From assembly GCA_036480375.1 (NCBI GenBank), contig JAZGGI010000021.1, forward strand, positions 10,083-74,082: a stretch of 64,000 nt of DNA, read 5' to 3'. Within the stretch, counting starts at the first letter, position 1; every line of letters begins with the position of its first letter. The notes under the pieces are model-generated. The model searched no databases, was not told where the DNA came from, and was given only the letters and a program-made list of their open reading frames with translations. The stretch comes from Candidatus Zixiibacteriota bacterium (GTDB taxonomy: Bacteria; Zixibacteria; MSB-5A5; GN15; JAAZOE01). A program made the translations under genes and the position numbers. Positions 3,257 to 30,642 of this stretch are shown here, piece after piece.

Positions 3257-6200
3257 GTGGGAATAATGGAAACAACAATGACCAAAAAGACAAAGAGAAC
3301 TCTGCCGTTTATTTTCAAAAAGATATTTACACAATCCGATAGATTTACACTGCTCACCAATGATATAAAAAATGCTTTTGCAAATCAAAATAACGACGCG
3401 GCAATAAATGATAAAAATCATATAAACTTGACCGGTTTGGGCGGCGGCGGAACGGCCTATCTTTTGGCCGGGCTGTACGAAAAGATATCTGGTAATATCC
3501 TGTATGTGACTTCCACCTTTGATGAAGCGCAAAACCTCAATGACGATTTGATCAATCTTATCGGTGAAGATGCCGTTGAGTTCTTCCCCGGTCGTCAGAT
3601 TCCTCCGTATGAATTTCGTTCGCCATCGGGCGAGATAACAGGCCGCAGGTTATCTGCCTTATCAGCCTTGAACAATAATCATAAATCAATCATTGTCGCG
3701 ACCGCTCCGGCGATAATCGAACCGACGGTAGCCAAAGAAACTTTTGAAGCCGAATCACTGCATCTCCGCGTCGGCCTCGAACTCGATCCGAATGAATTGG
3801 CGTTGCGGCTCATCACACTCGGATTCAACCGTGTCGATACCGTTGAGGAAGTCGGCGATTTTGCCGTTCGCGGAGGGTTAATCGATTTCTTTTCGCCGTC
3901 GCACGAGCTACCGATTCGAGCTGAGTTTTTTGGCGATGAGATAGAGTCGCTTCGTCATTTCGATGTTCGCGACCAGCGCACGATAGAAAAATTCGATTCC
4001 ATTGATTTATTGCCTCGCCGCGAAGTTCCCATTAGAGCGGAAACGATTGAAGATCACCTTGAAAAACTGCATGCAAAAGACGCTGATCTGATCCGTGCCC
4101 GATTTCTATCCGAGCCGGACTTGCCCGGTCTGGAATGGCTCGCGGCCGCCTTCGGGATCGCTCGCGGTTCGGTTCTCGATTATCTGAAAGAGGATACTCT
4201 GATAATCCTCGACGGCGGCAGCGCTCTTCTGGGCGATATGAAAGACGCCTACGAAACCGGATCGGAACATTATGATAAAGCAAAAAACCGTTTAGTTAAA
4301 CCTCCCGAAATCGACACTTATTACTACACTCCCGAAGCGCAGTATCATCGCCTGACCAAAAACGTTTGCTGTATTATCCATCCTTTTCGTTCCAGGGAAA
4401 ATGCCCGCTTCGATTTCGGATGCGCCGAACATCCGGCTATCGGCAGCCGCCTTGACTATCTATCCGAAGTCATCGAAAAATACAAAAATCAGGGATACCA
4501 AACCGTCATCACCTGCGACAATAAGGGCCAGGCCGAACGGTTGGCCGAAATTTTGGGCGAGAGAAAAATCAATGTCCCTGTTGAAGTCTTTCACATCCAT
4601 GCCGGGTTCGTCTCGGATGAACTAAAATTCGCTCTTCTAACCGACCATCAGATATTCTCTCGCCGCTTCCGCCGCATCAAACGCCGCCGTTACAAAGAAG
4701 GCGTCGCCCTGACGTCGTATTCAAATCTGAACCAGGGAGATATCGTCGTGCACGCCGATTATGGCCTGGCGCGCTTTTCCAAACTGGAATCAATCACCGT
4801 GGACAGCCGCACCCGCGATTGCCTCCTTTTGATTTACAAAGACGGCGACAAACTGTACGTCCCGATTGAAGAATTCAACCGGGTTTCCAAATATGCCGGC
4901 AAAGACGCCAAACCAAAACTGACCAGCCTCGGTTCGCCAGCCTGGGAAAAAGTAAAGAAGCGAACCAAAAAAGCGCTGGCGGACATGGCCGAGGAATTGT
5001 TGAAATTATACGCCGAGCGGAAAATGAAACCGGGATTCAAATTCGATGAGGATACCGTCTGGCAAAAACAACTCGAGGCTTCGTTTGCCTACGAAGAAAC
5101 TCCCGACCAGATGAAAGCCATCAACGACGTCAAGCGCGATATGCAGACCGATAATCCGGCCGACCGTCTCGTGTGCGGGGATGTCGGATACGGCAAAACC
5201 GAAGTCGCCGTGCGGGCCGCCTTCAAAGCGGTTGAAAACGGTAAGCAGGTAGCGGTACTCGTACCCACGACGATTCTGGCGCAGCAACATTTCAGTACTT
5301 TTTCAAAACGGCTTAAAGAATTCCCGATGCGGATTGAAGTGCTATCACGATTCAAAACCCGAAAAGAGCAGAAAGCGATTATAGAAGATATCGCCGGGGG
5401 TAAGGTCGATATCGTCATCGGGACGCATCGCCTGCTTTCCAAAGATATCTTTTTTGCCGACCTGTGTCTTCTGATCGTTGACGAGGAGCAGCGGTTTGGC
5501 GTGGCGCATAAGGAAAAACTACGCAAACTCAAACAAAATGTCGATACCATTACGCTGACGGCGACGCCGATTCCGCGCACTCTCCAGCTTTCGATGATGG
5601 GCGCGCGCGATATGTCGCTTATCAATACTTCGCCGCGCGACCGCCTTCCGATTCAGACCGAAATTATTGAATTCAATCCTCAGCTTATGGCCGAGGCGAT
5701 CCTGCGTGAAATCGACCGCGATGGCCAGGTTTATTTTGTGCATAACCGCGTGCAGACGATTGAGGCGATGTATCGCTATCTCAAAAAATTCCTGCCGCAG
5801 GTCGAAATCGCCATCGCGCACGGACAGATGCATGAGAGGGAACTGGAAGGCGTCATGCTCGCTTATCTGGCCGGGCGGTTTCAGGTACTGCTGTGCACCT
5901 CGATTATTGAATCGGGTCTCGATATCCCCCGGGTCAATACTATTATAATCAACCGCGCCGACCGTTTTGGTCTGGCACAGCTTTATCAACTCCGGGGACG
6001 AGTCGGGCGTTCGCCCCGGCGAGCTTACGCCTATCTGGTGACCCCGCCGTATCGCCTGATGTCCAACGATGCCCGCAAGCGGATGCGGGCGATTGAAGCC
6101 CATTCCGATCTCGGCTCGGGTTTCGCCTTGGCGATGCGCGATCTGGAAATCCGAGGCGCCGGGCAGATCCTGGGCAAAAAACAATCGGGTTTTATCGAGG

Positions 6201-6724
6201 ATATTGGATTCGATTTATATACCAAACTTCTTGAAGAAGCCGTTGCCGAACTCAAGGGCGAAAAAATCGAACGCCTGCCGGACACCAAACTGGAAGGCAA
6301 ACTCGATTTATATCTGTCCGATGATTACGTCAATATCAAACAGCAGAAAGTCGATATCTACCGGCGGCTGGCCGACTGCGTCAAGCTCGACCAGATTGAA
6401 AAAATCAGGGAAGAGGTCGAAGACCGCTTCGGGAAGATGCCCGCCAAGGCCGAAGAATTTTTTGATGCTACGGCGCTTCGGTTAATGGCGGCGATATGCG
6501 GCGTTGAGCGCGTCATCGTCAATAACTTGAGAATAAAAATCGAATTTCCACCTTCGCTTGAAGTCACCCGGCCGTTTATTGAGCAAATCCGCAAAGCCAT
6601 TGACGCCCCGGTCGAATTTTCCCTGACCGGTAATTTCAACATCACCGTTGATTTGTCAAGCATCAACGCCAAAGACAGATTGAAATACATGAAAAAAGCG
6701 CTTGGGGAGATAGGGGTGAGGTAG
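3257..6724 (+). CDS. mfd: Transcription-repair coupling factor Mfd
   Basis: 1155-aa ORF. It has a UvrB-homology N-terminal region, a CarD/RNAP-interacting region (GDIVVHADYGLARF), and superfamily-2 translocase motifs (GDVGYGKTEVA, DEEQRFG, TATPIPRT, QLRGRVGR). The true start may be the ATG at 3266. Confidence 0.95.
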   Translation: MGIMETTMTKKTKRTLPFIFKKIFTQSDRFTLLTNDIKNAFANQNNDAAINDKNHINLTGLGGGGTAYLLAGLYEKISGNILYVTSTFDEAQNLNDDLINLIGEDAVEFFPGRQIPPYEFRSPSGEITGRRLSALSALNNNHKSIIVATAPAIIEPTVAKETFEAESLHLRVGLELDPNELALRLITLGFNRVDTVEEVGDFAVRGGLIDFFSPSHELPIRAEFFGDEIESLRHFDVRDQRTIEKFDSIDLLPRREVPIRAETIEDHLEKLHAKDADLIRARFLSEPDLPGLEWLAAAFGIARGSVLDYLKEDTLIILDGGSALLGDMKDAYETGSEHYDKAKNRLVKPPEIDTYYYTPEAQYHRLTKNVCCIIHPFRSRENARFDFGCAEHPAIGSRLDYLSEVIEKYKNQGYQTVITCDNKGQAERLAEILGERKINVPVEVFHIHAGFVSDELKFALLTDHQIFSRRFRRIKRRRYKEGVALTSYSNLNQGDIVVHADYGLARFSKLESITVDSRTRDCLLLIYKDGDKLYVPIEEFNRVSKYAGKDAKPKLTSLGSPAWEKVKKRTKKALADMAEELLKLYAERKMKPGFKFDEDTVWQKQLEASFAYEETPDQMKAINDVKRDMQTDNPADRLVCGDVGYGKTEVAVRAAFKAVENGKQVAVLVPTTILAQQHFSTFSKRLKEFPMRIEVLSRFKTRKEQKAIIEDIAGGKVDIVIGTHRLLSKDIFFADLCLLIVDEEQRFGVAHKEKLRKLKQNVDTITLTATPIPRTLQLSMMGARDMSLINTSPRDRLPIQTEIIEFNPQLMAEAILREIDRDGQVYFVHNRVQTIEAMYRYLKKFLPQVEIAIAHGQMHERELEGVMLAYLAGRFQVLLCTSIIESGLDIPRVNTIIINRADRFGLAQLYQLRGRVGRSPRRAYAYLVTPPYRLMSNDARKRMRAIEAHSDLGSGFALAMRDLEIRGAGQILGKKQSGFIEDIGFDLYTKLLEEAVAELKGEKIERLPDTKLEGKLDLYLSDDYVNIKQQKVDIYRRLADCVKLDQIEKIREEVEDRFGKMPAKAEEFFDATALRLMAAICGVERVIVNNLRIKIEFPPSLEVTRPFIEQIRKAIDAPVEFSLTGNFNITVDLSSINAKDRLKYMKKALGEIGVR

Positions 6725-6747
6725 ATTTCTACGCAGTTCAAGCTTCG

Positions 6748-9700
6748 CTATTTTTTATCAGTTGCCTCGTCTTCATTATTATTCACATCGAATAATGCCA
6801 ATAATTTTCTAATTTCCTGTTCATCAGGGTATTTATTGGCCAATTCATTCAGCTCTTCATACAATTGTTGCACCTGCTCAAGCTCTCCCTTATTACCGTA
6901 AATAGTAATCAAATTGTAGGCGCCTTTTGCCTGTTCCAGTCTTATTTCCGGCTCATCAGAGTACTTATCGGCCAGCGCCCCCAGCTCATCATATAATTTC
7001 CGCGCCTTCGCAACCTCACCCATATTGGCGTAAGCGAAAATCAAATTGTAGGCGCCTTGCGCCTGTCTCAGTCTTATTTCCGGCTCATCGGGGTAATTAC
7101 CGGCCAGCGCCCCCAGCTCATCATATAATTTCCGCGTCTTCGCAACCTCACCCATATTGGCGTAAGCGAAAATCAAATTGTAGGCGCATTTTGCCTGTGC
7201 CAGTCTTATTTCCGGACCATCGTATTTGTCGGACAGAGCCGAAAGATCGTCATATATTTCCTGAGCCTTGGCAAACTTTTCCTTTTTATAGTAATAAATT
7301 GTCAAATTGTAGGCGCCTCGTGCATGTGTCAGTCTTATTTCCTGTTCATCGGGATATTTACCGGCCAGCGCCGCCAGCTCATCATATAATTCCCGCGCCT
7401 GCTCAACCTCTCCCTTATTACCGTAAGCCAATATCAAATTGGCGGCGCCTTGTGCCCGTGCCAGTCTTATTTCCTGTTCATCGGGGCACTTACCGGCCAG
7501 CGCCGCCAGCTCATCATATAATTTCCGCGCCTGAGCAACCTCTCCCTTATTGCCGTAAGCTGAAATCAAATTGACGGCGCCTTTTGCCCGTGCCGGTCTT
7601 ATTTCCGGTTCATCGGGGTATTTACCGGCCAGGGCCGCCAGCTCATCATATAATTTCCGCGCCTGCGACAACTCATCCTTATTGCCGTAAGCTAAAATCA
7701 AATTGTAGGCGCCTTTTGCATGTATCAGTCTTATTTCCTGTTCATCGGGGTAACTACCTGCCAGCGCCGCCAGCTCATCATATAATTCCCGCGCCTGCGG
7801 AAGCTTACCCTTATTGGCGTAATCATTAATCAAATTGAAGGCGCCTTTTGCCTGTTCCAGTCTTATTTCCGGCTCATCAGAGTACTTACCTGCCAGCGTT
7901 GCCAGCTCATTATACAACTGTGCCGCCTGCGCAATCTCACCCTTATTGGCGTAAGCTGCAATCAAATTGACAGTGCCTTGTGCCCGTGCCAGCCTTATTT
8001 CCGGCTCATCGGGGTATTTACCGGCGAGGGCCGCCAGCTCATCATATAATTCCCGCGCCTGCGGAAGCTCATCCTTATTGGCGCAAATGGTAATCAAATT
8101 GACGGTGCCTTTTGCCCGTGATTTACGAATCAAGGAGGAATCTTTATACCGGGTCGCGAGAGTTTTTAAATCCTCGTAGTAGGATCGTGATTGTTCCAGT
8201 GAGAATTTTGCGCCGCCGTAATATAGAATATTGATTGCCAAAATTGACCAGAGAGTTGTCTCCTCTTCGGAGCGGTCCGCACATTTCAGGATATGGGCAA
8301 GAATCTTATGATCATGAAAATCTCTGATACATCGGTTTAAAAAGTCCGCAAAACCGGACGGGGAGATTTTCCATGCAATCCGCCGCATTTTTTCGGCAAT
8401 ATTATTAAGTTCCGGATGACCGCTGTCCAGGTGCTTAAGAACAAAATACTCGCCGATGATATCGGGTTCCAGCGGCGGCAGAGTGTCGCTTATCCGACTG
8501 CCCGACATTTTTTCAAATTTCTCAGTATTAAAATTCGCGGGAGATGGAAGTGATAAATCACTGTCGTTATTTTTAAGATATGCAATTGGAAGATGCCCGG
8601 TCATAGTCGCCAATGCCAGCAGATTCTTATAGGTTTGGCCTTCGTCGCCCAATAGCCAGAACTCATTTTCTTCCCGCTCCAGCACATCGTCCAGCAGACG
8701 GGTTTTATCCCATGCGTAAATATCCTGATTATGCACGACCGCTTCAGCCGCGAGAGTTCCGTACAACGGACGGCATTCGGGATCTATTTTCCTCAGTGAT
8801 TGTAAAAATTCGGATTTATTCGGTAGGGTCTTATTATGGCCCTTGATTACAAAAGACGCCAGGCCCCAAACGTCATCTTCCGAAAAAGAAGGCAAATTGA
8901 GCGGTTCGTCAAAACGGATCTCTTCAATTATGTACTTTGAACTGCCGCTTCCCAGGAATTTATCGTACCATTGACCCTCGGCGTCTCTCTCCAGTATCAA
9001 AAATCTGACAGGGCATGGAAAAGGTTTATTTCGCTGCGCCAAAGACAGGATAGCGGAACGAACATCGGAAGTTCGTTTGGCGGCATAGTCGATTATGATA
9101 AGCGTGGGCCCGTCCGGTTCCCAATCCACCCAGTCGGCGAATTTGTTAGATTCCGGAAGAAAGCCAACCCGCCACGGTTGGCCATTTCTTAAACAAAACT
9201 CCAGCGCCAGGCGGCTTTTACCCATTCCGCCGGATCCGATTGCAATCCACCACGAAAATGCTTTTGGAGCGTTAAGAAAATCCTGCAAACGATTTTTTTC
9301 ATACTCCCTGCCAATAAAAGGTACGCGGCGGGCTCTGAAATTGAGCCGGGATGCAGGCGCCACGGATAACAGTTTCAGTTCCAGGGAAGGTTGAGGACGT
9401 ATAACCGATTCCAAATCAGCAATCAGATTTTTCAGGTCGGTTTTTATTTCGTCAGTATCGGATAGTGTCTTGAGTGTAGTTCTCAATTCGGCGGACAGAG
9501 CATCGCCGAATTCCGCGTCTCGCACCGGACGCTCTCCTGATAATATCTTTTCCAGTAATTGGCGGTCCTGGTTTTTATTATCCAGTGTGGATTTTAATTT
9601 CATTACCTGCCCGGCGATCTCATTATAGTAGGGCACCTTTTGAACAATTTTACTTAATCGTTCGGTGGCATTTTTCGACAGCCATTTTCCGGCTACGCCC

Positions 9701-9894
9701 GCGCTGAGAACCACCAGCTTGGCAAGAAGTCTGAATACTATGCTGATATATATTTTGGGGAAGGAGGTTTCTTTATGAATCCAGTCGATAATTTGCGCGG
9801 CCGTATCGGAATCGGACAAATATTTTGCCAAATCATCGCTTATAATATGATCGACAATTGTATTGGGATTCAAATCCTGCTTGGGCGTAGACAA
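6748..9894 (-). CDS. STAND/NLR-like P-loop NTPase with an N-terminal helical domain and a C-terminal array of 44-aa TPR/Sel1-like repeats
   Basis: 1048-aa ORF with three signatures.
- Walker A: IGSGGMGKSRLALEF (aa 219-232).
- Walker B-like: TLIIIDYA (aa 264-271), then RFLILER.
- About 10.5 tandem 44-aa helical repeats over aa 569-1048. Confidence 0.75.
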   Translation of the reverse strand: MSTPKQDLNPNTIVDHIISDDLAKYLSDSDTAAQIIDWIHKETSFPKIYISIVFRLLAKLVVLSAGVAGKWLSKNATERLSKIVQKVPYYNEIAGQVMKLKSTLDNKNQDRQLLEKILSGERPVRDAEFGDALSAELRTTLKTLSDTDEIKTDLKNLIADLESVIRPQPSLELKLLSVAPASRLNFRARRVPFIGREYEKNRLQDFLNAPKAFSWWIAIGSGGMGKSRLALEFCLRNGQPWRVGFLPESNKFADWVDWEPDGPTLIIIDYAAKRTSDVRSAILSLAQRNKPFPCPVRFLILERDAEGQWYDKFLGSGSSKYIIEEIRFDEPLNLPSFSEDDVWGLASFVIKGHNKTLPNKSEFLQSLRKIDPECRPLYGTLAAEAVVHNQDIYAWDKTRLLDDVLEREENEFWLLGDEGQTYKNLLALATMTGHLPIAYLKNNDSDLSLPSPANFNTEKFEKMSGSRISDTLPPLEPDIIGEYFVLKHLDSGHPELNNIAEKMRRIAWKISPSGFADFLNRCIRDFHDHKILAHILKCADRSEEETTLWSILAINILYYGGAKFSLEQSRSYYEDLKTLATRYKDSSLIRKSRAKGTVNLITICANKDELPQARELYDELAALAGKYPDEPEIRLARAQGTVNLIAAYANKGEIAQAAQLYNELATLAGKYSDEPEIRLEQAKGAFNLINDYANKGKLPQARELYDELAALAGSYPDEQEIRLIHAKGAYNLILAYGNKDELSQARKLYDELAALAGKYPDEPEIRPARAKGAVNLISAYGNKGEVAQARKLYDELAALAGKCPDEQEIRLARAQGAANLILAYGNKGEVEQARELYDELAALAGKYPDEQEIRLTHARGAYNLTIYYYKKEKFAKAQEIYDDLSALSDKYDGPEIRLAQAKCAYNLIFAYANMGEVAKTRKLYDELGALAGNYPDEPEIRLRQAQGAYNLIFAYANMGEVAKARKLYDELGALADKYSDEPEIRLEQAKGAYNLITIYGNKGELEQVQQLYEELNELANKYPDEQEIRKLLALFDVNNNEDEATDKK
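6751..8190. repeat. Intragenic tandem repeat, 132-bp period, about 10.9 copies (encodes the 44-aa repeats of the STAND protein)
   Basis: The string caaattgtagg recurs at 6910, 7042 and 7174, exactly 132 bp apart. Neighbouring units are near-identical by eye, for example 6950-7080 versus 7082-7212. Confidence 0.9.
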
Positions 9895-9989
9895 TCAGAT
9901 TCTCCTTTTGACCTTTGAATATATGCCCTGCAATATAACTACCAAGAAATAATATATACTTAATTCATACCAAAAAGCAAGGAATTTTG

Positions 9990-10122
9990 CTTTTGCCTCC
10001 ACCCTCCGGAGGCAACCGGGCGGCTCGCGAGCCGCCCCTGCAGGAGATTGATGTCATAGCCCGTAATCAACATCGATTTGATATGCCCCAAAACGTTAAT
10101 TTGAGGAAACAAACCCATTTTG
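9990..10122. repeat. Intergenic repeat element, copy A (GC palindrome plus conserved flanking module)
   Basis: The perfect palindrome gggcggctcgcgagccgccc (10018-10037) is followed by ctgcagg. The 16-mer ttgatatgccccaaaa (10078-10093) is identical to 63375-63390, and the surrounding ~50 nt are clearly homologous. Confidence 0.5.
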
Positions 10123-10351
10123 ATAAACTGATTTTAGGCCAATCCGGATTTTTTTTGGCAATTAGGAATTAATTATTGCATCTACCAGGCATATTTCAAA
10201 TTCGCGGTTAGGGTCAGGATACTCAACATTGCCCGGTAAAAGGCTCTCATGCGAACGATAAAATGGGAAAAAACAGACCCGCCGGAAAACACCGGTCCCT
10301 CTGAAGAAGATTACAGGACTGAAGACATTGTCTTAAAGAATTTATGATCGT

Positions 10352-11236
10352 TTATTCTTGTCTTTTATATTGGAATGAGTCAAACGGCTCAAGAAGAATA
10401 TGGGCGTCCGGCATGTGCTCCTTAAAGATGTTAATATATTGCTCCTGTACTTTGGCGTCGGGAGTAAAATGCATAAATACAATTTCCTCAGGTTCGATAA
10501 TATTAAAAAAGACGTTCTGGGATTCAGCACTGATATCGTAAAATCCGATGAATAGAATATCGGTTTTAACGCCTTCATCACGCAGTTTCTGAAAACAGCT
10601 TTCGTGATTTTTCAGCCGCGCGTCACCGATATGCATAATATTATTGCCGTTGATAGTGAAGAGGTATCCCAGGTTTTGAGTATGTGCATGCTTATCGTAC
10701 TGTTCCCCGGTTTCTTCATCGGTTATCATGTATGAACCATGAGCCAGACCAAGCGCGCGGATTGAAATATCAGAGATGACGATTTCAACCCATAAATCTT
10801 TTTCGGGCGCAAGTGCTATTACCCGCTCGCTTATTAATTCGAAATTTGAACATGAATCCCGGAGCATCTCGAAAACCTGGGACGGGCCCACCAGAATGGC
10901 ATCCCTATTAGATTCCAGATGTCTCGCGGCAGAAACCGGATCAAAATGATCGAAGTGCCTGTGGGTAACGAAAACAATATCAATATCATCGAAGGGCGGT
11001 AACGCCTGCTCCATTTTTTCTAAGGTGCTATCAGACGGCCCATAATAATATTGTTCGTCGCCTTCAATATTAAAAATGGCGTCAATCAATACTTTCTTAT
11101 CCGCTGATTGTATGAGATAGCCGTCGCTGGCGATGTATGTCACGGTTACATCGGAATATCGCTGACCCTGGCAGCCGGTAATTGTAATCAGAATAGAAAC
11201 AAATATAATAAAGGTAAAAATCCGTTTCGACTTCAT
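10352..11236 (-). CDS. MBL-fold metallo-hydrolase, probable lipoprotein
   Basis: It carries the HxHxDH motif (THRHFDHFD). The N-terminus MKSKRIFTFIIFVSILITITGC has a lipobox-like ITGC. The start is taken at the internal Met (ORF track start is 11251). Confidence 0.7.
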   Translation of the reverse strand: MKSKRIFTFIIFVSILITITGCQGQRYSDVTVTYIASDGYLIQSADKKVLIDAIFNIEGDEQYYYGPSDSTLEKMEQALPPFDDIDIVFVTHRHFDHFDPVSAARHLESNRDAILVGPSQVFEMLRDSCSNFELISERVIALAPEKDLWVEIVISDISIRALGLAHGSYMITDEETGEQYDKHAHTQNLGYLFTINGNNIMHIGDARLKNHESCFQKLRDEGVKTDILFIGFYDISAESQNVFFNIIEPEEIVFMHFTPDAKVQEQYINIFKEHMPDAHILLEPFDSFQYKRQE

Positions 11237-11339
11237 AATAGTGCCTCCCAAGTGATTATTCGATAATTAGGACGTGGAATAAATCTAAGTGTTTTAAATA
11301 ATTCCATCGAATGATTCTTAAAAATATTAACCGAACTTG

Positions 11340-11849
11340 TTACTTCTTCCGATTCACGGCCACGATGATTAAAGCGATAGCGATCAGGGCAACTGTGGCA
11401 ATGATAACTATCGGCATACCAATATCAATTTCGCCTTTGGCTGAAAAGATAATAAGAAAAAGTATTCCTATTGCAAGAAATACAATACCCAGAATACTCA
11501 CGACTAATGCTCCGGCACCAACACCGACATTCGTACGATATGGATCGGTTTCGCGGAACTGATCGTTCTTTCGTTCATCAATTCGTCTCTTAAACCGAAC
11601 CCTGTTATTATCGAATTTTTCAACAAGTTCCCAACCTGACTTAGCTTCTTCCTCAATTACTTTTCTCAGGTTATCAGGTTTTCTGAAATACTCCGTATTT
11701 GCTCTAACGATTTTGAATTCCCAATCCTTCAGATCATCCGAATTATAATTGGTCATTATTTCTTCCTCCTTGCGGAGCATCTCAGCTCGTTTAGCTGCGG
11801 CGACGGCAGCGATCACGCCGCCGGTCACGGCGGGTGTTACTCCGGACAT
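11340..11849 (-). CDS. Hypothetical membrane protein (DUF4177-like soluble domain plus C-terminal TM helices)
   Basis: 169-aa ORF. The WEFKIV...GWELVEKFDNNRVRFKRR pattern resembles DUF4177. Two hydrophobic C-terminal segments follow. Confidence 0.4.
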   Translation of the reverse strand: MSGVTPAVTGGVIAAVAAAKRAEMLRKEEEIMTNYNSDDLKDWEFKIVRANTEYFRKPDNLRKVIEEEAKSGWELVEKFDNNRVRFKRRIDERKNDQFRETDPYRTNVGVGAGALVVSILGIVFLAIGILFLIIFSAKGEIDIGMPIVIIATVALIAIALIIVAVNRKK

Positions 11850-12074
11850 ATTTCCTCCATTTTAATCAATATACCGAAAACCAACAATAAAACTCAAATC
11901 TTTATTAAAAAATACAGCTAATCCCCTTGACAATAAGGACATACGAGTAATAAAAAATATATAAATCCTCCATTCTGTGATTGCCTTTTGCGTTGAAAAC
12001 CCGTATTATAAGAATCTGTTATAGCCTGCCTTAATTGGCGTAACTTGTTTTAATAAAGAGAGATAAGTAGCAAT

Positions 12075-14576
12075 ATGGACTTACAGCATCAGAAAATTAT
12101 CCCGATTTTTCTCGAAGAGGAAATGAAAAATTCATACTTAGATTATTCCATGTCGGTTATTACCAATCGAGCCCTGCCGGATGTCCGCGATGGTCTTAAA
12201 CCATCCAACCGTCGCATCCTCGTGGCCATGCATGAATTAAATCTTTCTCCCGGACGGCCTCATCGAAAATGCGCTAAAATCGCCGGTGATACCTCCGGTA
12301 ATTATCACCCGCACGGCGAGCAGGTTGTTTATCCGACGCTGGTTCGTATGGCTCAGGATTTCAATATGCGCTATCCCCTGGTGGATGGACAGGGTAATTT
12401 CGGTTCCATTGACGGCGACGGCGCCGCGGCTATGCGATATACCGAAGCCCGGTTGACCCCGATAGCGATGGAGATGATGGTCGATATCGAAAAAGAAACC
12501 GTTGATTTCATACCCAACTACGACGGGACTCTGAAAGAGCCGACGGTTTTACCGGGACGATTTCCTGATCTGATATGCAACGGGACAACCGGCATCGCGG
12601 TCGGTATGGCGACAAGCATCGCGCCGCATAACCTGACTGAGATATGCGCCGCCATAAATGCCATAATCGAAGATCCCGAAGTTGATAACGAATCACTTAT
12701 GGAAATAGTCCCCGGGCCGGATTTTCCCACCAGCGGAATTATATACGGCCGCGAAGGCATCAAAGAGGCGTATAGAACAGGCCGTGGAAGAATTACTCTG
12801 CGGGCCCGAGCCGTCACCGAAAAACAAAAAAATGGCAAAGAGCATATTGTCATCACAGAAATTCCGTTTCAGGTTAATAAATCCAGCCTTTTGATGCGCA
12901 TTGCCGATCTGGTGCGCGACAAAAAGCTGATCGGCATATCCGACCTGCGTGATGAATCGGATCGTGACGGTTTAAGAATCGTTGTCGAACTCAAGCGCGA
13001 CGCCCAGCCTGAAATCGTACTCAATCAGCTTTACAGCCATACCAATCTACAGACGACATTCTCGATAATTAATCTGGTTCTGGATAAAGGCGTCCCGAAG
13101 TTACTATCTCTGAAAAACCTTCTGGAATTATACATTGACCATCGTCATGAAGTTGTCGTCCGACGGACCAGGCACGATCTGCGCAAAGCTGAAGCCCGGG
13201 CTCATATTCTTGAAGGTTACAAAATAGCGCTGGATAATATCGATGCCGTAATAGCTCTTATTAAAAAGTCAAAGTCCGTTCCCGATGCCCGGGAAGGCTT
13301 GATAAAGAAATTCAAATTATCCGAGATTCAGGCCAATGCCATTCTCGAAATGCGGTTGCAGAAACTGACCGGGCTGGAACGTGAAAAAATTGAAAAAGAG
13401 TATCTTGAAACCATAAAAAAGATCGAGGAATACAAATCGATTTTGGATTCCAAGCCGCGCCGGATGCGTATTATCCGGGACGAAGTCAAGGATCTCAAGA
13501 AGAAATACGGCGATGATCGGCTGACCGAGATTATCGACGAAACCGAAGACTTGACGATTGAGGATTTGATTGCCGATGAAGAAATGGTTATCACCATCAC
13601 TCATACCGGATATATCAAATCACTTTCGGTCTCAGCGTACCGGAGGCAAAACCGGGGCGGCAAAGGCGTCATCGGTATGGAAACCAAAGAAGAAGATTTC
13701 GCCGAGCATGTCTTTATCGCCACCTCGCATCAGTATATCCTGTTTTTTAGCACAATCGGGCGATGTTACTGGGTTAAAGTGCATGAAATACCACGGGGAG
13801 GGCGCCTCGCCAAAGGCCGGCCGATCGTCAATATGTTAAAATTATCGCAGGGCGAAAGAATCTCGACCTTTACCCGTGTGCGGGAATTTACTCCGGATAA
13901 ATATATTATCATGGCCACCCGCAATGGTGTCATCAAAAAGACTTCGCTGGATTCATATTCCAATCCTCGCGTCACGGGAATTAATGCCATAACGCTCCGC
14001 AAAGGCGATGAGCTGATTCGTTGCGCCCTAAGCGACGGAACCAACGATATCCTCCTCGGAACCCGCAAAGGTCAGGCAATACGATTCCCCGAAGATAAAG
14101 TCCGGGCGATGGGACGTACCGCCGCCGGCGTCAAGGCTATTAAACTCGGCAAAGGCGATGAAGTTGTCGGGATGGTTGTCATCAAGCGCCAATCGACCAT
14201 TCTGGCCGTAACCGAAAACGGATACGGCAAGCGGACCAGCGTGGCCGACTACCGTATAACCAACCGCGGCGGGAAGGGCATCATCAATATCAAATGTTCC
14301 GAGCGCAACGGCAATGTCGTTGCGGTCAAGGAAGTGCTCGATGATGATGAACTTATCATGATGACCAAAGGCGGAATCGCCAATCGCATGGCGGTCAAAT
14401 CGGTCAATACTATCGGCCGCAATACTCAGGGCGTGCGAATGATTTCGCTCAAAGGCAAAGATAAACTGACCGACGTCGCGGTTGTCTTCGGCAGCCGAAA
14501 GAAACTGGCCGAAAACGGCAACGGTAACAACGGTAATAATAATGCTAATGAGAATCAGGAAGAATTAGACGTTTAG
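12075..14576 (+). CDS. gyrA: DNA gyrase subunit A
   Basis: 833-aa ORF with the conserved N-terminus YLDYSMSVITNRALPDVRDGLKPSNRRIL, the active-site region AAAMRYTEARL, and C-terminal beta-pinwheel repeats. It ends in an Asn/Gly-rich tail. Confidence 0.97.
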   Translation: MDLQHQKIIPIFLEEEMKNSYLDYSMSVITNRALPDVRDGLKPSNRRILVAMHELNLSPGRPHRKCAKIAGDTSGNYHPHGEQVVYPTLVRMAQDFNMRYPLVDGQGNFGSIDGDGAAAMRYTEARLTPIAMEMMVDIEKETVDFIPNYDGTLKEPTVLPGRFPDLICNGTTGIAVGMATSIAPHNLTEICAAINAIIEDPEVDNESLMEIVPGPDFPTSGIIYGREGIKEAYRTGRGRITLRARAVTEKQKNGKEHIVITEIPFQVNKSSLLMRIADLVRDKKLIGISDLRDESDRDGLRIVVELKRDAQPEIVLNQLYSHTNLQTTFSIINLVLDKGVPKLLSLKNLLELYIDHRHEVVVRRTRHDLRKAEARAHILEGYKIALDNIDAVIALIKKSKSVPDAREGLIKKFKLSEIQANAILEMRLQKLTGLEREKIEKEYLETIKKIEEYKSILDSKPRRMRIIRDEVKDLKKKYGDDRLTEIIDETEDLTIEDLIADEEMVITITHTGYIKSLSVSAYRRQNRGGKGVIGMETKEEDFAEHVFIATSHQYILFFSTIGRCYWVKVHEIPRGGRLAKGRPIVNMLKLSQGERISTFTRVREFTPDKYIIMATRNGVIKKTSLDSYSNPRVTGINAITLRKGDELIRCALSDGTNDILLGTRKGQAIRFPEDKVRAMGRTAAGVKAIKLGKGDEVVGMVVIKRQSTILAVTENGYGKRTSVADYRITNRGGKGIINIKCSERNGNVVAVKEVLDDDELIMMTKGGIANRMAVKSVNTIGRNTQGVRMISLKGKDKLTDVAVVFGSRKKLAENGNGNNGNNNANENQEELDV

Positions 14577-14601
14577 AATATTTTGCTTCGAGATTATCAA
14601 T

Positions 14602-14630
14602 AGCCGCCTTATTTTTCGGGCGGCTTTTTT
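14602..14630. terminator. Rho-independent terminator between convergent gyrA and the GYD gene
   Basis: Stem agccgcc (14602-14608) pairs with ggcggct (14619-14625) and is followed by a T-run. Confidence 0.6.
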
Positions 14631-14636
14631 AATATT

Positions 14637-14918
14637 TTATATCAGTCTCGAAAAGTCCTCATAAGAAATTACCGGCCAGGTTTCGGTTTCCAATATGCCC
14701 CGGCTGTTTATCTCGGACGCTACCCGAAACGCGGTGGTCTGGTCGTCGGCGTCGAATAAAGCGATATAATCGTACCGCCCCAGCGTCGCGAATAGATTAT
14801 CAACTTTCACATTATTTTTTGAAAATACATCCAACGATGCGTTGATTTGATGCGATAAATCCGGATGTGCTTTTTTGGCGTCGGAATTGATATTCATTGC
14901 CATAATAAAAGTCGCCAT
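14637..14918 (-). CDS. GYD domain-containing protein
   Basis: 93-aa ORF. TLGRYDYIALFDADDQTTAFRVASEINSRGILETETWPV fits the GYD family pattern (G-Y-D core followed by ...G...T.T). Confidence 0.55.
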   Translation of the reverse strand: MATFIMAMNINSDAKKAHPDLSHQINASLDVFSKNNVKVDNLFATLGRYDYIALFDADDQTTAFRVASEINSRGILETETWPVISYEDFSRLI

Positions 14919-15191
14919 AAGTTACCTCCCACGATATTTAAAAAATCCCATGCTTTCGTTTATTAGTTGATTTAGTTCCATTGATATTTCTCAAGTGATA
15001 CGTTTTGAAACGACGATTTTTAATATAAATCAATAAGCAAATTGCCTCCACCCTCTTGCGCCGCCAACGATAATTTTATATAATAGTATTAGTTCAAATC
15101 TTGATGTACATCTGGGACTGAAGAATAGATTTCTAATCTGGTTCTTTGGTTAAGACATCATCGCGCGAAAACCATATCAACTATACGAGGT

Positions 15192-15728
15192 ATGGTCATG
15201 CCGGAACAAACGTATTCAGCGGAAACGGCCGAAAAATTGGTCGTCGTGTCGTCAGAACTCTGCACGGAAATGACTAATTATTTAATCACTCGCGGCTATT
15301 TTTTGAAATTAGCCCATATCGGCTCAATCTTACGGGAGAATTTTGTCGCTATCCTGTGCGTGCTGTCCCTCAAGGAAAATATCATCTCCAGCGTCGATGA
15401 AATGAAGGAGCTTTTGGAAAATTCCAAAACCCCGCTGCGTGACTGGCTGACGGCCGTCTATGCTGCCACCAATCGAGAATATGATTATGAGAACCTGGTA
15501 ACCAATACGATTGATGATTTGTACCCCTATTATAATCAATGGTGCCGCGAACTCTTCACCGATGAGGAAGTAAACGGCAAAGATATCGGTAAATGGATAC
15601 CTGCCGCGACGGCCGCCTGCGTTAAAAATATAACCGATGAATTGGAAATGGATCTGGACGTCAACCTGTCCCATGAAGTTGATGACCTCAATGAGATTAT
15701 ATATCGCTATATCGAAAAACTGAGTTAA
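15192..15728 (+). CDS. Hypothetical protein
   Basis: 178-aa ORF with a plausible RBS (gagg) upstream. I recognise no family. Confidence 0.4.
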   Translation: MVMPEQTYSAETAEKLVVVSSELCTEMTNYLITRGYFLKLAHIGSILRENFVAILCVLSLKENIISSVDEMKELLENSKTPLRDWLTAVYAATNREYDYENLVTNTIDDLYPYYNQWCRELFTDEEVNGKDIGKWIPAATAACVKNITDELEMDLDVNLSHEVDDLNEIIYRYIEKLS

Positions 15729-15884
15729 ACCTCATCTCTGAACCAGGAATTATTCATTTGTATTCAATTCTCACCGTGAAACATTGGCCTGCAGATATCG
15801 TAGAAATATTTATATGCGGATTTTTTGAGGGGTATAGTAAATAGGCAGGAATAATTAAATCTATTGTCGGCAAGTGAGGCATAT

Positions 15885-16739
15885 ATGAATCTCAATCGCA
15901 AAATGGTATTAGTAATTGGTTTGGCGTCTTTGACGCTCTTCTCGGGTGCTTTTGCCAAACCCAAAAAGGAAATCATAAAGACTTACGATGCCAAAGAATC
16001 AATCAGGATAAAAACTGTCAGCGGCGATTGTATCGTTGAAAAAGGGGATGCCGATAAAATTATCGTTCGCCTGGAATATTCCATTTATCCCGAGGACGTC
16101 TTTGAGCCAGAATTCAAGGAGAGAGACAACTCTTTGAGACTGGATGAGGAATTTTATGGGTCATCGTCGGGAAGCTCAAAATGGTATCTCTCGGTCCCCG
16201 ACGGCACCGACATAAGATTCTCGTCCGCATCGGGTAATTTTTCGGCGGAGGGATTGGATCTGGATGTGATTATTTCCACAGCTTCGGGAGATATTGATAT
16301 TCTTGATTGCGGGGGGAGATTTGAAGGTAGTACAGCCTCTGGTAATATATTATTAGAAGGATCGCGTGGAGAATTTAATCTATCGACGGCGTCGGGAAAT
16401 GTTGACGCGATGGAAACAAAATTCGAAGACGATTGCGAATTATCATCGGCGTCCGGCGATGTTCTCGTCAGGCTCACCGAAAGTCTGACCCATGACTTTA
16501 TTATCAGGTCGGCCTCCGGTGATGCCGTTCTGGATTATGACGGGAATCCGGTTAAGGGGTATTTTGAATTCGTTGTCAAGTATCGCGATGGACGCATCAA
16601 ATCGCCGTTTGATTACGATGATGAAGAAAAATTCCGCCGTTGGGGTGATCAGTATATTCGTAAATCTTTCACCAGGGAAACCGATAGCCTGGAAATTTCA
16701 ATTTTTTCTGCCTCCGGTCGGGCGGAGTTGCGCGACTAA
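15885..16739 (+). CDS. DUF4097-like beta-strand repeat protein (putative adhesin), exported
   Basis: A signal peptide (MNLNRKMVLVIGLASLTLFSGAFA) starts at ATG 15885, after gtgagg. ASG(D/N) motifs recur every ~20 aa: SASGNF, TASGDI, TASGNI, TASGNV, SASGDV, SASGDA, SASGRA. Confidence 0.6.
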   Translation: MNLNRKMVLVIGLASLTLFSGAFAKPKKEIIKTYDAKESIRIKTVSGDCIVEKGDADKIIVRLEYSIYPEDVFEPEFKERDNSLRLDEEFYGSSSGSSKWYLSVPDGTDIRFSSASGNFSAEGLDLDVIISTASGDIDILDCGGRFEGSTASGNILLEGSRGEFNLSTASGNVDAMETKFEDDCELSSASGDVLVRLTESLTHDFIIRSASGDAVLDYDGNPVKGYFEFVVKYRDGRIKSPFDYDDEEKFRRWGDQYIRKSFTRETDSLEISIFSASGRAELRD

Positions 16740-16768
16740 ATAGGATTTCGATTAATAAAACTCCAAAA

Positions 16769-16800
16769 AAACCTATTGTTTAAGCGATAGGTTTTATTTC
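16769..16800 (+). terminator. Possible rho-independent terminator
   Basis: Stem aaacctat pairs with ataggttt and a T-rich tail follows. The stem is AT-rich, so support is weak. Confidence 0.35.
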
Positions 16801-16899
16801 TTGACTTTAACATAAATATTTTATTTATATTCTAACACGCTTTTATAAGAATCACTCTTTATTAATGCGCTCAAATATATAAATCTGTATCGGGGGAGT

Positions 16900-18492
16900 A
16901 TGATGGGTATAAAATCAAGATTTACCGGTCGCCGCCGGGCTTACGATGAAGATTATGGCTGGCACTACGGAAAAATTCCCGAAAAACTGAAAGTTGAAGG
17001 AAAAGAGATTGAACATCCCGGGCGAAAATGCGCGATTTTTCTCGTACACGGCATCGGGACTCAAACCCGGACTGAAACGGCGGCCCAGCTTCGTTCAGGA
17101 TTCGAAGACGCTTTTGCGAAAATTTCCAATTGGCAAAAGAAAAATAATATCAAAGGAGTTCCAAATACTCGCAATCTGCCGCCGCCTTATATTAAAGAGG
17201 CGTACTGGGCCAACTATGCCAATGTTGAAGAAACGTTCCCGGACGATGTCAAGAAATTCAGCGATAATGAGAAGAAATTTTTTATCAAGCTTTGGACCAA
17301 ACGCTTATCCTCTGCTTTTAGAACATATTTCTGGTTTCTCGGACAGCAACTAAGACTTCTTAATCCTTCGGTAATATGTAAGGTCGGGTTTTTCGCCTGG
17401 CTGACATATTTTCCGTTTCAACTTATTTCATTTGTCATCCTGACGATTTCCCTGATTCGCCACCCCAAAATTATATCGGACTATCTTACCGATGTCAGGC
17501 TCTATCTTAAGCCGCGGGGGATAGTCGAACGGACGATTGTTAAAAATATTGATTACAATGTCGGAAAAACATTCCTGCAGCTTATCGGGCTTGACTGGGA
17601 TTTTCGAACGCTTCATGGCAAACACCGCAAGTATGTATTAGATCAACCAATAGAATTCAAGAGAATAATCTGGGTCGCCCACAGTCTGGGGACAGTCATA
17701 AGTTATAACGTTCTCTCGGATTTGTTTCACCGCGCTCAGAAAATCGAAATAGGCAATTTCAGTAAAGAGCAAAAGGATAATATCAGGGTTTTCAAACGCT
17801 CCCTTAAAAGATTTGTTACTCTGGGAAGCCCCATCGATAAAGTCGCTTTCTTATTTTATAAATCGTCATTGCGCCGCTGGCCCAGAATGCTGCGAGAGGA
17901 AATGCTTTTCCGCAATGAAATAATCGACGCCTATTTTGATATTGAAACTATGAAGAAGAAGGCAATAAAAGAGGCTGCCGAAAAGAAGATTGAAAAGGAG
18001 CAATCTTTCAAAAAAGATGAAGATATATGCCTTAATGACTATGATAAAAATCTCGGCGAGGAATGGTGGTACAATTTTTATCATGTCTTCGACCCCGTTT
18101 CGGGAGCATTAAACAGCGATTTATTATTCAAGCGCAGGAAGCCCAAATCAAAAAAGGATTCGAATGCAAAAGACGAAGATGATCCATTCATATATCAACC
18201 GCCTGTTAATCTGCATATCAAAATCTTAAAATGTCCCTTATGGGCACATGTCTTGTACTGGACAGATTCTCGTTCACTGGGTTATATCCTCGCATCAGCG
18301 TATGGTTCATTTGTAAATACCAAACCGTGCAAACCTTACTCCAGCCTGACCCTGACCATTTTGGCAATAATTTCCAAACTGGCTGTTTTTGGAATAGCCG
18401 GGGGAATTATTTACTCGATTCTATGTTGGGATAGAATCCGCCCGGTGTTGCAAAAAATATTCCCGGTTTTGGAGTTCATTTTTGGGTGGTGA
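16900..18492 (+). CDS. Membrane-embedded alpha/beta-hydrolase-like serine hydrolase (lipase/esterase-like)
   Basis: 530-aa ORF.
- Oxyanion-type motif: FLVHGIGTQ.
- Nucleophile elbow: VAHSLGT (GxSxG-like).
- Also TLGSPIDK, and candidate Asp (FDPVSG) and His (WAHVLYW) residues.
- Hydrophobic segments occur mid-protein (FFAWLTYFPFQLISFVILTISLI) and at the C-terminus. Confidence 0.55.
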   Translation: MMGIKSRFTGRRRAYDEDYGWHYGKIPEKLKVEGKEIEHPGRKCAIFLVHGIGTQTRTETAAQLRSGFEDAFAKISNWQKKNNIKGVPNTRNLPPPYIKEAYWANYANVEETFPDDVKKFSDNEKKFFIKLWTKRLSSAFRTYFWFLGQQLRLLNPSVICKVGFFAWLTYFPFQLISFVILTISLIRHPKIISDYLTDVRLYLKPRGIVERTIVKNIDYNVGKTFLQLIGLDWDFRTLHGKHRKYVLDQPIEFKRIIWVAHSLGTVISYNVLSDLFHRAQKIEIGNFSKEQKDNIRVFKRSLKRFVTLGSPIDKVAFLFYKSSLRRWPRMLREEMLFRNEIIDAYFDIETMKKKAIKEAAEKKIEKEQSFKKDEDICLNDYDKNLGEEWWYNFYHVFDPVSGALNSDLLFKRRKPKSKKDSNAKDEDDPFIYQPPVNLHIKILKCPLWAHVLYWTDSRSLGYILASAYGSFVNTKPCKPYSSLTLTILAIISKLAVFGIAGGIIYSILCWDRIRPVLQKIFPVLEFIFGW

Positions 18493-18564
18493 TGAATTTA
18501 GTGAATTTTAATGTCGGGTCACATCGGGCAAAACCCAATGTGACCTGGTGAAATCAATTCATGC

Positions 18565-19137
18565 CTAATACAAAAATGATGTAATGCCGACGCCGAATAT
18601 AATTGTGGTGCCGGAATCCGAATATTCATCCCAGCTCCATTTATCCGACGACACCCTAAATCCCAGATCAGCCCCGACAGCGTCTGATATCATTAATATC
18701 ATTCCAACCTGTGCACCAAATTCCGTGATATTGATATTACCATTTCCGCCGAAATCAATTTGACCAAAATTGAAAAAACCGGAAATGTATGGATAGACTG
18801 CGCCTTTAACATCCACTCGTTCCTGGTTAGTATTCAGGTAATATCCGATTTTAGGTCCAATTCGAAACTCGGTGTATGTGTCTCCACTTTGAGACAGAGA
18901 TACTAAATCAAAATTAGCCCCCATCATAAATCCGTCAGATACAAAAAACCCTAAAGATGGATTTAATATAATTGTGGTCATCCCGTCTCCGTCATCCTCA
19001 TATAGGTCGCCGGATTGAGAAAATACATAAAATTGTCCGCCTAAAATGGCATTGCCCTTTTCAAGCGGCGTCTCTCCAAATGATAAACCGGTCATGATGA
19101 AAAATACCACGCCCAGCATAATCATTACTTTTGACAT
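18565..19137 (-). CDS. Small outer-membrane beta-barrel protein (OmpW/porin-family-like)
   Basis: 190-aa ORF with a signal peptide, an alternating amphipathic strand pattern, and a C-terminal aromatic residue (...GVGITSFLY). Confidence 0.55.
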   Translation of the reverse strand: MSKVMIMLGVVFFIMTGLSFGETPLEKGNAILGGQFYVFSQSGDLYEDDGDGMTTIILNPSLGFFVSDGFMMGANFDLVSLSQSGDTYTEFRIGPKIGYYLNTNQERVDVKGAVYPYISGFFNFGQIDFGGNGNINITEFGAQVGMILMISDAVGADLGFRVSSDKWSWDEYSDSGTTIIFGVGITSFLY

Positions 19138-30570: not shown

Positions 30571-30642
30571 CTGGGGCGGCAGGATTCGAACCTGCGAATG
30601 CAAGCTCCAAAGGCTTGTGTCTTACCACTTGACGACGCCCCA
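30571..30642 (-). tRNA. tRNA-Gln (anticodon UUG)
   Basis: The reverse complement TGGGGCGTCGTCAAGTGGTAAGACACAAGCCTTTGGAGCTTGCATTCGCAGGTTCGAATCCTGCCGCCCCAG folds as a cloverleaf. It has a 7-bp acceptor stem, anticodon stem CAAGC/GCTTG, loop CTTTGGA (anticodon TTG), and T-arm GCAGG-TTCGAAT-CCTGC. Confidence 0.9.

Follow-up and report, generated by a model that had tools for sequence, protein, structure and literature searches.

Introduction

What is the role of a 1048-residue STAND NTPase that is encoded by a solitary gene next to mfd in the genome of an uncultured bacterium? The gene lies at positions 6748 to 9894 on the minus strand of a 64,000-nucleotide stretch of contig JAZGGI010000021.1, which is termed the window in the following, and the adjacent GyrA places its host in Candidatus Zixiibacteriota. 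The original prediction, which was made from the sequence alone, had taken the protein for a pattern-recognition type ATPase of defence or signalling, and this view is now supported by the fold of the NTPase, by the swapping of effectors among its relatives, by the accessory slot in which the gene resides, and by homologues that are phage-borne or adjacent to defence genes. We consider it probable that this single gene encodes a STAND NTPase of NLR-like (Avs-like) type that serves in a biological-conflict system, most likely as a sensor against phages. The gene belongs to the accessory content of this Zixibacteria genome, and its product would act by the mechanism proposed below. The gene and its parts are as follows (all on the minus strand):

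6748..9894, complete STAND/NLR-like gene, 1048 aa, as given by the list of open reading frames (ORFs) and the translation, with homologues at E = 0 to 1e-173
9541..9894, aa 1-118, orphan all-alpha module and presumed output domain; of its seven helices in the AlphaFold2 models, a1-3 form an acidic cap and a4-a5 a basic/hydrophobic hairpin
9400..9540, disordered hinge (aa 118-127, pLDDT <50) and two linker helices (aa 128-145 and 152-165) seen in the model
8200..9399, STAND NTPase chassis, aa ~166-565, with a conserved PQPxL lead-in and nucleotide-binding, helical and winged-helix-like domains, pLDDT 85-98
9214..9237, Walker A motif GSGGMGKS, aa 220-227 with K226; G225, K226 and R228 are invariant and S227 is nearly so in 59 sequences
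9082..9102, Walker B motif LIIIDYA, aa 265-271 with D269 followed by Y270; D269 is invariant and Y270 nearly invariant in the 59 sequences
8986..9009, VRFLILER strand, aa 296-303, sensor-1/arginine region; R297 and R303 are invariant in the 59 sequences, and residues 296-302 form a strand in the model
6775..8193, sensor of ~10.5 tandem 44-aa TPR/PPR-like repeats, aa 568-1040, from the 132-nt unit found by Tandem Repeats Finder, the repeat register, and Pfam PPR/TPR_14

Domain architecture and class of the NTPase

The ORF is intact, and with homologues of such significance a chance ORF is excluded by far. Its start codon is TTG (9894-9892), with an AAGGAG ribosome-binding site at 9907-9902, i.e. 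7 nt 5' of the TTG, and this start is supported by the homologues, as their alignments begin at residue ~1 of the protein. The layout of three parts that had been read from the sequence, namely a helical N-terminus, a P-loop NTPase and an alpha-solenoid of repeats, agrees with the ORF, the motifs, the structural model and the repeat array, and the motifs GSGGMGKS, LIIIDYA and RFLILER that had been singled out are indeed present and rank among the best conserved positions in the family.

An AlphaFold2 model of aa 1-600, which was built on 59 family sequences (pLDDT 87, pTM 0.76), shows a seven-helix module (aa 10-118), the disordered hinge (118-127), the linker helices (128-165), an alpha/beta nucleotide-binding domain, and then the helical and winged-helix-like domains. 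In Foldseek searches of the PDB with this model, the best matches were resistosomes of plant NLRs (NRC4, ZAR1 and Sr35), human SAMD9, an archaeal Walker-type ATPase (2qen), a STAND-TPR protein of Pyrococcus (6mfv), the filament of Avs5 and the Dark apoptosome, and RuvB, FtsH, Cdc6/ORC and clamp loaders ranked below these STAND/NLR proteins. By fold, the NTPase is therefore found on the STAND/NLR side and not among the housekeeping AAA+ proteins, which the original prediction had considered as a possible outcome, and by sequence it is weakly related to nSTAND5 and AAA_16. The profile of nSTAND_NTPase5 (PF25199) gives only 22.8-23.7 bits with our protein, which is below the gathering threshold of 34, and the AAA_16 match is weak as well. 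Ten of 18 close relatives, in turn, match nSTAND5 at E < 1e-3 (best 6.7e-7), and by these profile scores the protein appears to be a divergent relative of PF25199 rather than a certified member. The profiles of NB-ARC (PF00931) and NACHT (PF05729) found no match in the protein at E <= 1, so that the likeness to NB-ARC is structural only, as it comes from the Foldseek matches and not from the PF00931 profile.

Other profiles add little to this. The NCBIfam scan of the protein gave only spurious, repeat-driven matches, and a search of the literature for nSTAND5/PF25199 yielded nothing. In the Pfam and NCBIfam scans, no significant DNA-binding helix-turn-helix (HTH) or winged-helix output domain was found in the protein, which disposes of the earlier concern that a DNA-binding domain of a LuxR/MalT-type regulator might have been overlooked, and which speaks likewise against a SARP-type regulator; HTH N-termini (Trans_reg_C, HTH_3) occur on a few, very distant relatives only. 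The protein can thus be assigned to the STAND NTPases, within a divergent lineage that is nSTAND5-like and lies apart from the named Avs types.

Exchange of N-terminal domains within the family

A search with aa 1-600 retrieved 69 proteins, nearly all of them from metagenomes or metagenome-assembled genomes (MAGs). In a scan of 185,579 species genomes, relatives were detected in 169 genomes with a patchy distribution over Alphaproteobacteria, Planctomycetota, Bacteroidota, Actinomycetota, Acidobacteriota, Chloroflexota and other groups.

The most telling property of the family is found upstream of Walker A, where more than 40 unrelated clusters of sequences are attached to one conserved chassis. 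The module of our protein accounts for about 40 of 137 N-termini. Others carry alpha/beta-hydrolases of the DUF676/PGAP1/DUF7379 type (17), SMEK_N (7) or SIR2_2 (3), and there are also trypsin-like peptidases, a Cap4-type nuclease, DUF4062, and a nucleoside-deoxyribosyltransferase-like domain. A cysteine-rich, HNH-like module, which was identified by its motif only, is present in 6 members, and many N-termini have glycine-rich hydrophobic helices, with a segment of transmembrane-range hydrophobicity in 23 of the 137. Immune-type effector domains (alpha/beta-hydrolase, SMEK_N, SIR2, trypsin, Cap4, DUF4062, Nuc_deoxyrib_tr-like) are found on ~32 of the 137 N-termini, i.e. on 23%. As a clade-level measure of defence association, immune effector domains in at least 10% of the members have been used (PMC13581612), and the family lies above this value, with the 23% resting on domain calls other than those of the pipeline in that study. 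The layout of the STAND superfamily is present in all its elements, as there are C-terminal superstructure repeats, variable N-terminal domains, Walker A and B motifs, and the fold of nucleotide-binding, helical and winged-helix domains. A constant switch and sensor in combination with a freely exchanged N-terminus that is rich in toxin-type domains is regarded as the signature of NLR-like conflict systems (PMC8195603, PMC13581612).

The repeat array and its putative sensor surface

Tandem Repeats Finder detects a 132-nt (44-aa) unit in ten copies with ~80% DNA identity (6808-8120), and the consensus of the repeat unit is QARELYDELAALAGKYPDEPEIRLAQAKGAYNLILAYANKGEVA. The program also reports a 396-nt super-period of three units (6808-8115) with a score above that of the 132-nt period, which we rejected, as the unit-versus-unit identities show no clear three-unit pattern. 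The whole-sequence scores of Pfam PPR (62 bits), PPR_2 (61 bits) and TPR_14 exceed the cut-offs only as sums of weak repeats, and not a single repeat passes the PPR threshold individually. Since the period is 44 aa, canonical PPRs of 35 aa are ruled out. Among solved structures, the nearest in sequence is a TPR-like repeat of 42 residues from an NLR-type protein of Podospora (PDB 4Y6C/4Y6W), which is matched by phmmer at E = 2.5-2.9e-6 (aa 643-846 against chain residues 15-210).

Among the units of this gene, variation peaks at four positions within the unit (25, 31, 35 and 36) and at its junction (43/44). The ratio pN/pS is 2.3 at the variable columns versus 0.49 elsewhere, which is a circular comparison, as the columns were picked for their variability. 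A non-circular test was made with 18 repeat arrays of different family members, 17 of which are independent of our protein, and there the positions 25, 35, 31, 28 and 36 were within the eight most variable ones in 16, 14, 12, 10 and 9 of the 18 arrays, respectively, whereas ~3.3 would be expected by chance. The spacing of i, i+3, i+6/7 and i+10 places these positions on one face of the second helix. Of 275 family proteins, 107 have repeats of 43-45 aa, among them proteins with hydrolase, SIR2 and several unassigned N-termini, and in several family arrays the internal identity is as high as 80-89%. Such a combination of high internal conservation and hypervariable positions has been described for fungal NLR repeats (PMC4986451) and was noted for bacterial ones (bioRxiv 10.1101/2020.01.06.895854). 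Judged from the repeat sequences, the stripe at 25/28/31/35/36 is probably the ligand-binding surface. Sensing via a hypervariable repeat surface is well supported, and the binding of a ligand as such is what we infer from it.

A shorter database version of the protein (P0001, 860 aa, from GCA_044344285.1) gave the impression of an allele with fewer repeats. We rejected this, as its contig matches the window at 100% identity over 12.5 kb and departs from it only in the final 100 bp (12533-12632), which lie inside the repeat array at the contig end, so that the shorter form is an assembly artefact. As a consequence, the exact number of repeats in the window cannot be independently verified.

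The N-terminal module as presumed output domain

The region that would have to execute a response is the orphan module at the N-terminus. The homology to P0027, a relative with another N-terminus, begins at aa 109. There is no Pfam match for the module, and Foldseek found no significant fold in the PDB (best E = 2.4) or among viral structures (best E = 2.4). In a sequence-profile search of the PDB with the module, nothing significant was obtained, and the best hit, a homeodomain stretch of 32 residues at E = 0.029, was judged to be a chance match. It thus holds, as had been stated, that no nuclease or protease is obvious in the effector, and the structure prediction with Foldseek that had been recommended for the N-terminal region ended in a helical model without any significant fold match for the module. 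No set of conserved catalytic-type residues is present in the module family.

When 1.84 billion representative proteins were searched exhaustively with a profile of the module, only 177 clusters contained it, and in all of these it forms the very N-terminus. This NTPase core is present in 78 of the 84 long carriers, and three more have a Walker A motif at the expected position. The remaining ones are P0099 and P0199, which were matched only as many short stretches, and P0181, which was left without assignment. The short module matches end inside the linker or the NTPase and therefore are truncated fragments. An adaptor of the effector-associated domain (EAD) type was rejected as a description of the module, as it was not found on separate effector proteins and 78 of the 84 long carriers have it on this chassis. 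A second copy on a partner gene was found neither in the window nor in any locus, with the exception of a tandem paralogue in a Rhodospirillaceae MAG (L004). In that MAG, two module-bearing paralogues lie on the same strand ~1.5 kb apart (8126-10183 and 11759-12581), and the second is cut by the contig end.

Since the sister proteins have their effectors at this position, the module most likely serves as the output domain and, moreover, as the effector itself, of a non-enzymatic kind. The module family has two conserved features, an acidic a1-3 region with a mean charge of -4.8 and a basic, hydrophobic a4-a5 region of about +5. In our protein, helix a4 (aa 47-65) reaches transmembrane-range hydrophobicity (KD19 = 2.04). 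Domains of the Bell, HeLo or HeLo-like type are not recognizable, as the helices at the start are acidic, a4 is the hydrophobic one, and Pfam gives no match.

Genomic slot and neighborhood

The STAND gene is convergent with mfd (3257-6724), and the distance of 23 nt that had been noted is confirmed by the coordinates, as the stop of mfd is at 6724 and the stop codon of the STAND gene ends at 6748. On its other side, the gene is preceded by a spacer and by a gene for a hydrolase with a metallo-beta-lactamase (MBL) fold, and together these elements form a segment which the three closest relatives lack:

6729..11339, no strand assigned, accessory segment of 4.6 kb between mfd and a DUF4177 gene, with the STAND gene, the spacer and the MBL-fold hydrolase gene (10352-11251)
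9895..10351, minus strand, upstream spacer of 457 bp; promoter-like sites lie at 10199-10172 and 9945-9918, and a cluster of hairpins at ~9975-10037 is followed by a U-run

In the compared genomes, which are listed with the identity of GyrA, the slot that extends from mfd to the DUF4177 gene contains:

window (GyrA 100%), 6729-11339, STAND gene, spacer and MBL hydrolase gene
P0203 contig (GyrA 93%), one unrelated ORF of 242 aa
L091 (GyrA 91%), 9018-9265, 248 bp without a gene, with flanks that align at 84% nucleotide identity
L092 (GyrA 85%), 6288-9738, four other unrelated ORFs

The interval from mfd to DUF4177/gyrA (window 6725-11339) is a hypervariable cargo slot in Zixibacteria, with four contents in four genomes, and since the content differs in all compared relatives, the STAND gene is accessory cargo. 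The window and L091 differ by further indels outside this slot. In the window, there are a gene for a DUF4097 'toastrack' protein and an ORF of 530 aa with no Pfam match (15723-18565), both of which are missing at L091 16142-16205, and L091 has an FG-GAP/dockerin gene after gyrA instead (12585-15052).

That the STAND gene forms a unit of its own, as had been proposed, is confirmed by the homologue loci, in which no neighbor family recurs in more than 6 of 80 cases. The MBL-fold protein is a generic UlaG-like metal-dependent hydrolase without a PADLOC match, and among 92 loci it is not found near any other family member, apart from GCA_044344285.1 (L001), which is the same locus. As it does not recur with the family, it was rejected as a partner.

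Some homologues are found in contexts of mobile elements or conflict. Two module-bearing homologues are located on IMG/VR contigs (L093 and L094). The one on L094 (IMGVR_UViG_3300000502_000021, 5578-12216) has 768 aa with the same module and NTPase core and lies between the genes for the large terminase gpA and a lambda-family portal protein of a predicted phage, which is a moron-like position in a morphogenesis operon, and the one on L093 lies beside a primase/MT-A70/D5-helicase module. Another homologue is located ~5 kb from an HNH and AAA_15/21 pair. When PADLOC was applied to 128 nearest neighbors in 33 loci, without a matched control, it recognized Avs2 (3e-278), IetS (1e-290), a type II methyltransferase (2e-153) and TmtA (1e-129), and the same neighbors include LeoA/BC, MADS components, CapP and a Pycsar cyclase (PycC). 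The Avs2 neighbor at L057 was confirmed against PDB 9o4e, and the other defence matches are pooled over the loci.

Proposed mechanism and points that weigh against it

Avs, NLR and apoptosome proteins have in common an NTP-dependent switch that is coupled to oligomerization. For the protein described here, we propose that the C-terminal solenoid of 44-aa TPR-like repeats would bind a foreign ligand, probably a phage protein, via the hypervariable stripe on the second helix. The binding of this ligand would release the NTP-dependent STAND switch and thereby induce oligomerization, which is suggested by the STAND fold, by the intact Walker motifs, and by what is known from Avs, NLR and apoptosome systems. 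The oligomerization would gather the N-terminal helical modules of ~118 aa, and these would execute the response. More speculatively, the basic/hydrophobic hairpin might attack the membrane once the acidic cap is displaced, with growth arrest or death of the infected cell as the result.

It is conceivable, albeit doubtful, that the module represents an unrecognized class of non-enzymatic cell-death executioners that is confined to this STAND lineage. In such a constellation, the acidic cap a1-3 would mask the a4-a5 hairpin until the oligomerization of the NTPase exposes and clusters the hairpins, which then permeabilize the membrane, and the module would be a functional analogue of the coiled-coil (CC) domains of plant NLRs and of HeLo and MLKL domains with an unrelated fold. 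A membrane-directed action of the module is speculative, and we regard it as a best guess and not as a finding.

Several observations weigh against this membrane step or against the immune function as a whole. In the PDB, Foldseek found no match of the module to CC, HeLo or MLKL bundles. The median KD19 of the module family is 1.29, and values of at least 1.6 are reached in only 5 of 46 sequences, so that a conserved transmembrane helix in the module was rejected. In the Walker B motif, which has the form hhhhD-Y-A, a Tyr is kept in at least 90% of the 59 aligned members in place of the usual second acidic residue, and an NTP hydrolysis that is slow or atypical may be the consequence of this Asp-Tyr pair. 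The recommended profile searches for Avs and defence families had a divided outcome. An nSTAND5-like relation was obtained, if weakly, whereas PADLOC 2.0 gave no match with the protein, including its models for the named types Avs1-5, and among the 18 close relatives there was again no Avs match, merely two weak STAND_TPR matches and one weak mad8 match. The anticipated enrichment of homologues near defence genes is also only partly borne out. Defence genes such as those for Avs2, IetS, the type II methyltransferase and TmtA were indeed found, but in view of the lacking matched control and the many housekeeping contexts the enrichment is suggestive and not proven. The window and most of the nine fully read contexts are of the housekeeping kind, and two homologues (P0023 and P0021, at L083 and L088) share the housekeeping synteny of dnaX, two small ORFs, the STAND gene, the prephenate dehydratase gene and kdsB, which indicates stable inheritance rather than recent mobility in that lineage.

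Alternative explanations

What alternatives exist for an anti-phage sensor that carries its own effector? The protein could be an immune STAND sensor whose N-terminal module is an adaptor, i.e. a Death-like or effector-associated domain that recruits or activates an effector encoded elsewhere. The module is short, consists of helices only, shows no enzymatic character and has few polar residues that are conserved, domains of this kind are common in bacterial STAND systems (PMC8195603), and the lack of a conserved transmembrane-range hydrophobicity would fit an adaptor as well. According to the EAD principle, however, the module should be found also on separate effectors, and instead the search of 1.84 billion proteins found it only at the N-terminus of this chassis or on contig-truncated fragments of it. 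There is also no second copy other than the tandem paralogue mentioned above, and no conserved neighbor, and an adaptor function is therefore fairly unlikely. The contexts of this gene and of several relatives could further suggest a non-immune STAND NTPase for signalling or scaffolding, such as a housekeeping regulator with an NLR-like layout, and in fact non-defence STAND clades are interspersed with defence clades (PMC13581612), distant relatives have Trans_reg_C or HTH_3 N-termini, and a PADLOC match is lacking. A regulator of this kind would be expected to have a DNA-binding or other signalling output domain, which is not found in the protein, and it would not readily account for the absence of the gene from the three closest relatives, for the toxin-type effectors on sister proteins, for the hypervariable repeat surface, or for the copies that are phage-borne or located in defence islands. 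We therefore consider a non-immune role to be quite improbable.

As the MBL-fold hydrolase gene (10352-11251) is on the same strand and is missing from the relatives together with the STAND gene as one 4.6-kb segment, both genes could also form a cassette in which the hydrolase is the effector under STAND control, all the more as the legend of an Avs7 figure names MBL domains as one type of N-terminal effector (PMC13581612). Such a cassette is very unlikely in view of the generic, PADLOC-negative nature of the hydrolase, its occurrence near no other family member in the 92 loci, the 457-bp spacer with terminator-like hairpins between the genes, and the lack of an adaptor module that is common to both proteins. 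Finally, the summed PPR and PPR_2 scores above the cut-offs might be taken to indicate a bona fide PPR protein whose repeats read an RNA sequence. The period of 44 instead of 35 aa, the failure of every single repeat to pass the threshold, and the TPR-like repeat of a fungal NLR-type protein as closest solved relative argue against this, and PPR-annotated repeats have also been found in the protein-sensing Avs5-3 (bioRxiv 10.1101/2025.07.08.663546), so that RNA reading appears extremely improbable. The single-gene conflict sensor remains the reading that we prefer.

Relation to known systems

Among the closest counterparts of the proposed sensor are Avs proteins, especially Avs5 (SIR2-nSTAND3-TPR/Sel1/PPR). 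In both cases, one polypeptide combines an N-terminal output, a central nSTAND-type NTPase and a C-terminal sensor of alpha-helical repeats, the Avs5 filament (9nc9) is among the Foldseek matches, SIR2-bearing relatives exist on the chassis of our protein, and the distribution is patchy with some homologues in defence islands. The main differences are that the NTPase is nSTAND5-like and not nSTAND3, that an orphan helical N-terminus takes the place of SIR2, and that PADLOC recognizes no Avs type.

In plant CC-NLR resistosomes, a non-enzymatic helical bundle is the executioner and forms a membrane channel. ZAR1, NRC4 and Sr35 are the best Foldseek matches (E ~1e-5) and share with our protein the succession of an N-terminal helical bundle, the nucleotide-binding, helical and winged-helix domains, and a repeat sensor. 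The sequence identity is only 12-14% with TM-scores of ~0.25, the sensor is TPR-like and does not consist of leucine-rich repeats, and the isolated module has no significant CC fold match and contains its most hydrophobic helix internally (a4) and not in the first position. Other N-terminal helical bundles of ~100-120 aa without enzymatic motifs, which are also found on NLR architectures, are the Bell, HeLo and MLKL domains, for which membrane targeting has been proposed or shown (bioRxiv 10.1101/2020.01.06.895854). In contrast to these, our protein has no N-terminal hydrophobic helix, its first three helices are acidic, there is no Pfam match to HeLo, HeLo-like or SesA, and a partner gene with an amyloid motif is absent. 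With regard to the sensor, the TPR repeats of fungal and bacterial NLRs (P. anserina, 4Y6C/4Y6W) are most similar (E ~3e-6), with a unit of ~42-44 aa, high internal identity, and few hypervariable positions on one helical face, but host kingdom and NTPase clade differ, and the repeats of our protein are ~70-80% identical, compared to 85-90% or more in the fungal ones.

As hundreds of STAND clades have been catalogued (589; PMC13581612), the protein is best seen as an uncharacterized and fairly ordinary member of the large bacterial NLR-like class, which stands out mainly by a presumed output domain at the N-terminus without resemblance to any known one. Of interest are this orphan domain in effector position, the clean specificity stripe, the Zixibacteria host, from a phylum for which no characterized defence system was found in this analysis, and the homologue between phage terminase and portal genes. 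If the proposed function is correct, the catalogue of bacterial NLR-like pattern-recognition receptors would gain one more sensor family, from an uncultured phylum, and the orphan module would be a definite candidate for an output mechanism of a new kind. The stripe, which is reproducible over many independent arrays, would provide a map of a specificity surface that is comparable to that of fungal NLR repeats and that could guide target discovery or re-engineering. If it is incorrect, the locus would be an ordinary accessory gene of unassigned function.

Upstream spacer and further features of the window

The region between the MBL hydrolase gene and the STAND gene had been described as a repeat-bearing spacer of 458 bp. 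The spacer is present, but it has 457 bp, and instead of dispersed repeats it contains a cluster of hairpins. On the minus strand, two strong stem-loops and one weak stem-loop follow each other at ~9975-10037, ~80-140 nt upstream of the start codon, and end in the U-run. Within these hairpins there is a perfect GC-rich palindrome of 20 nt that occurs only once in the 64-kb window, and the spacer was therefore rejected as a dispersed repeat element. The fold energy of the spacer is unremarkable (z = -1.5), and an Rfam scan of it gave no meaningful family match. The arrangement suggests a terminator or insulator behind the upstream gene, followed by a promoter of the STAND gene itself. Elsewhere in the window, the only Rfam match at the gathering level is a single tRNA gene at 30571-30642 on the minus strand.

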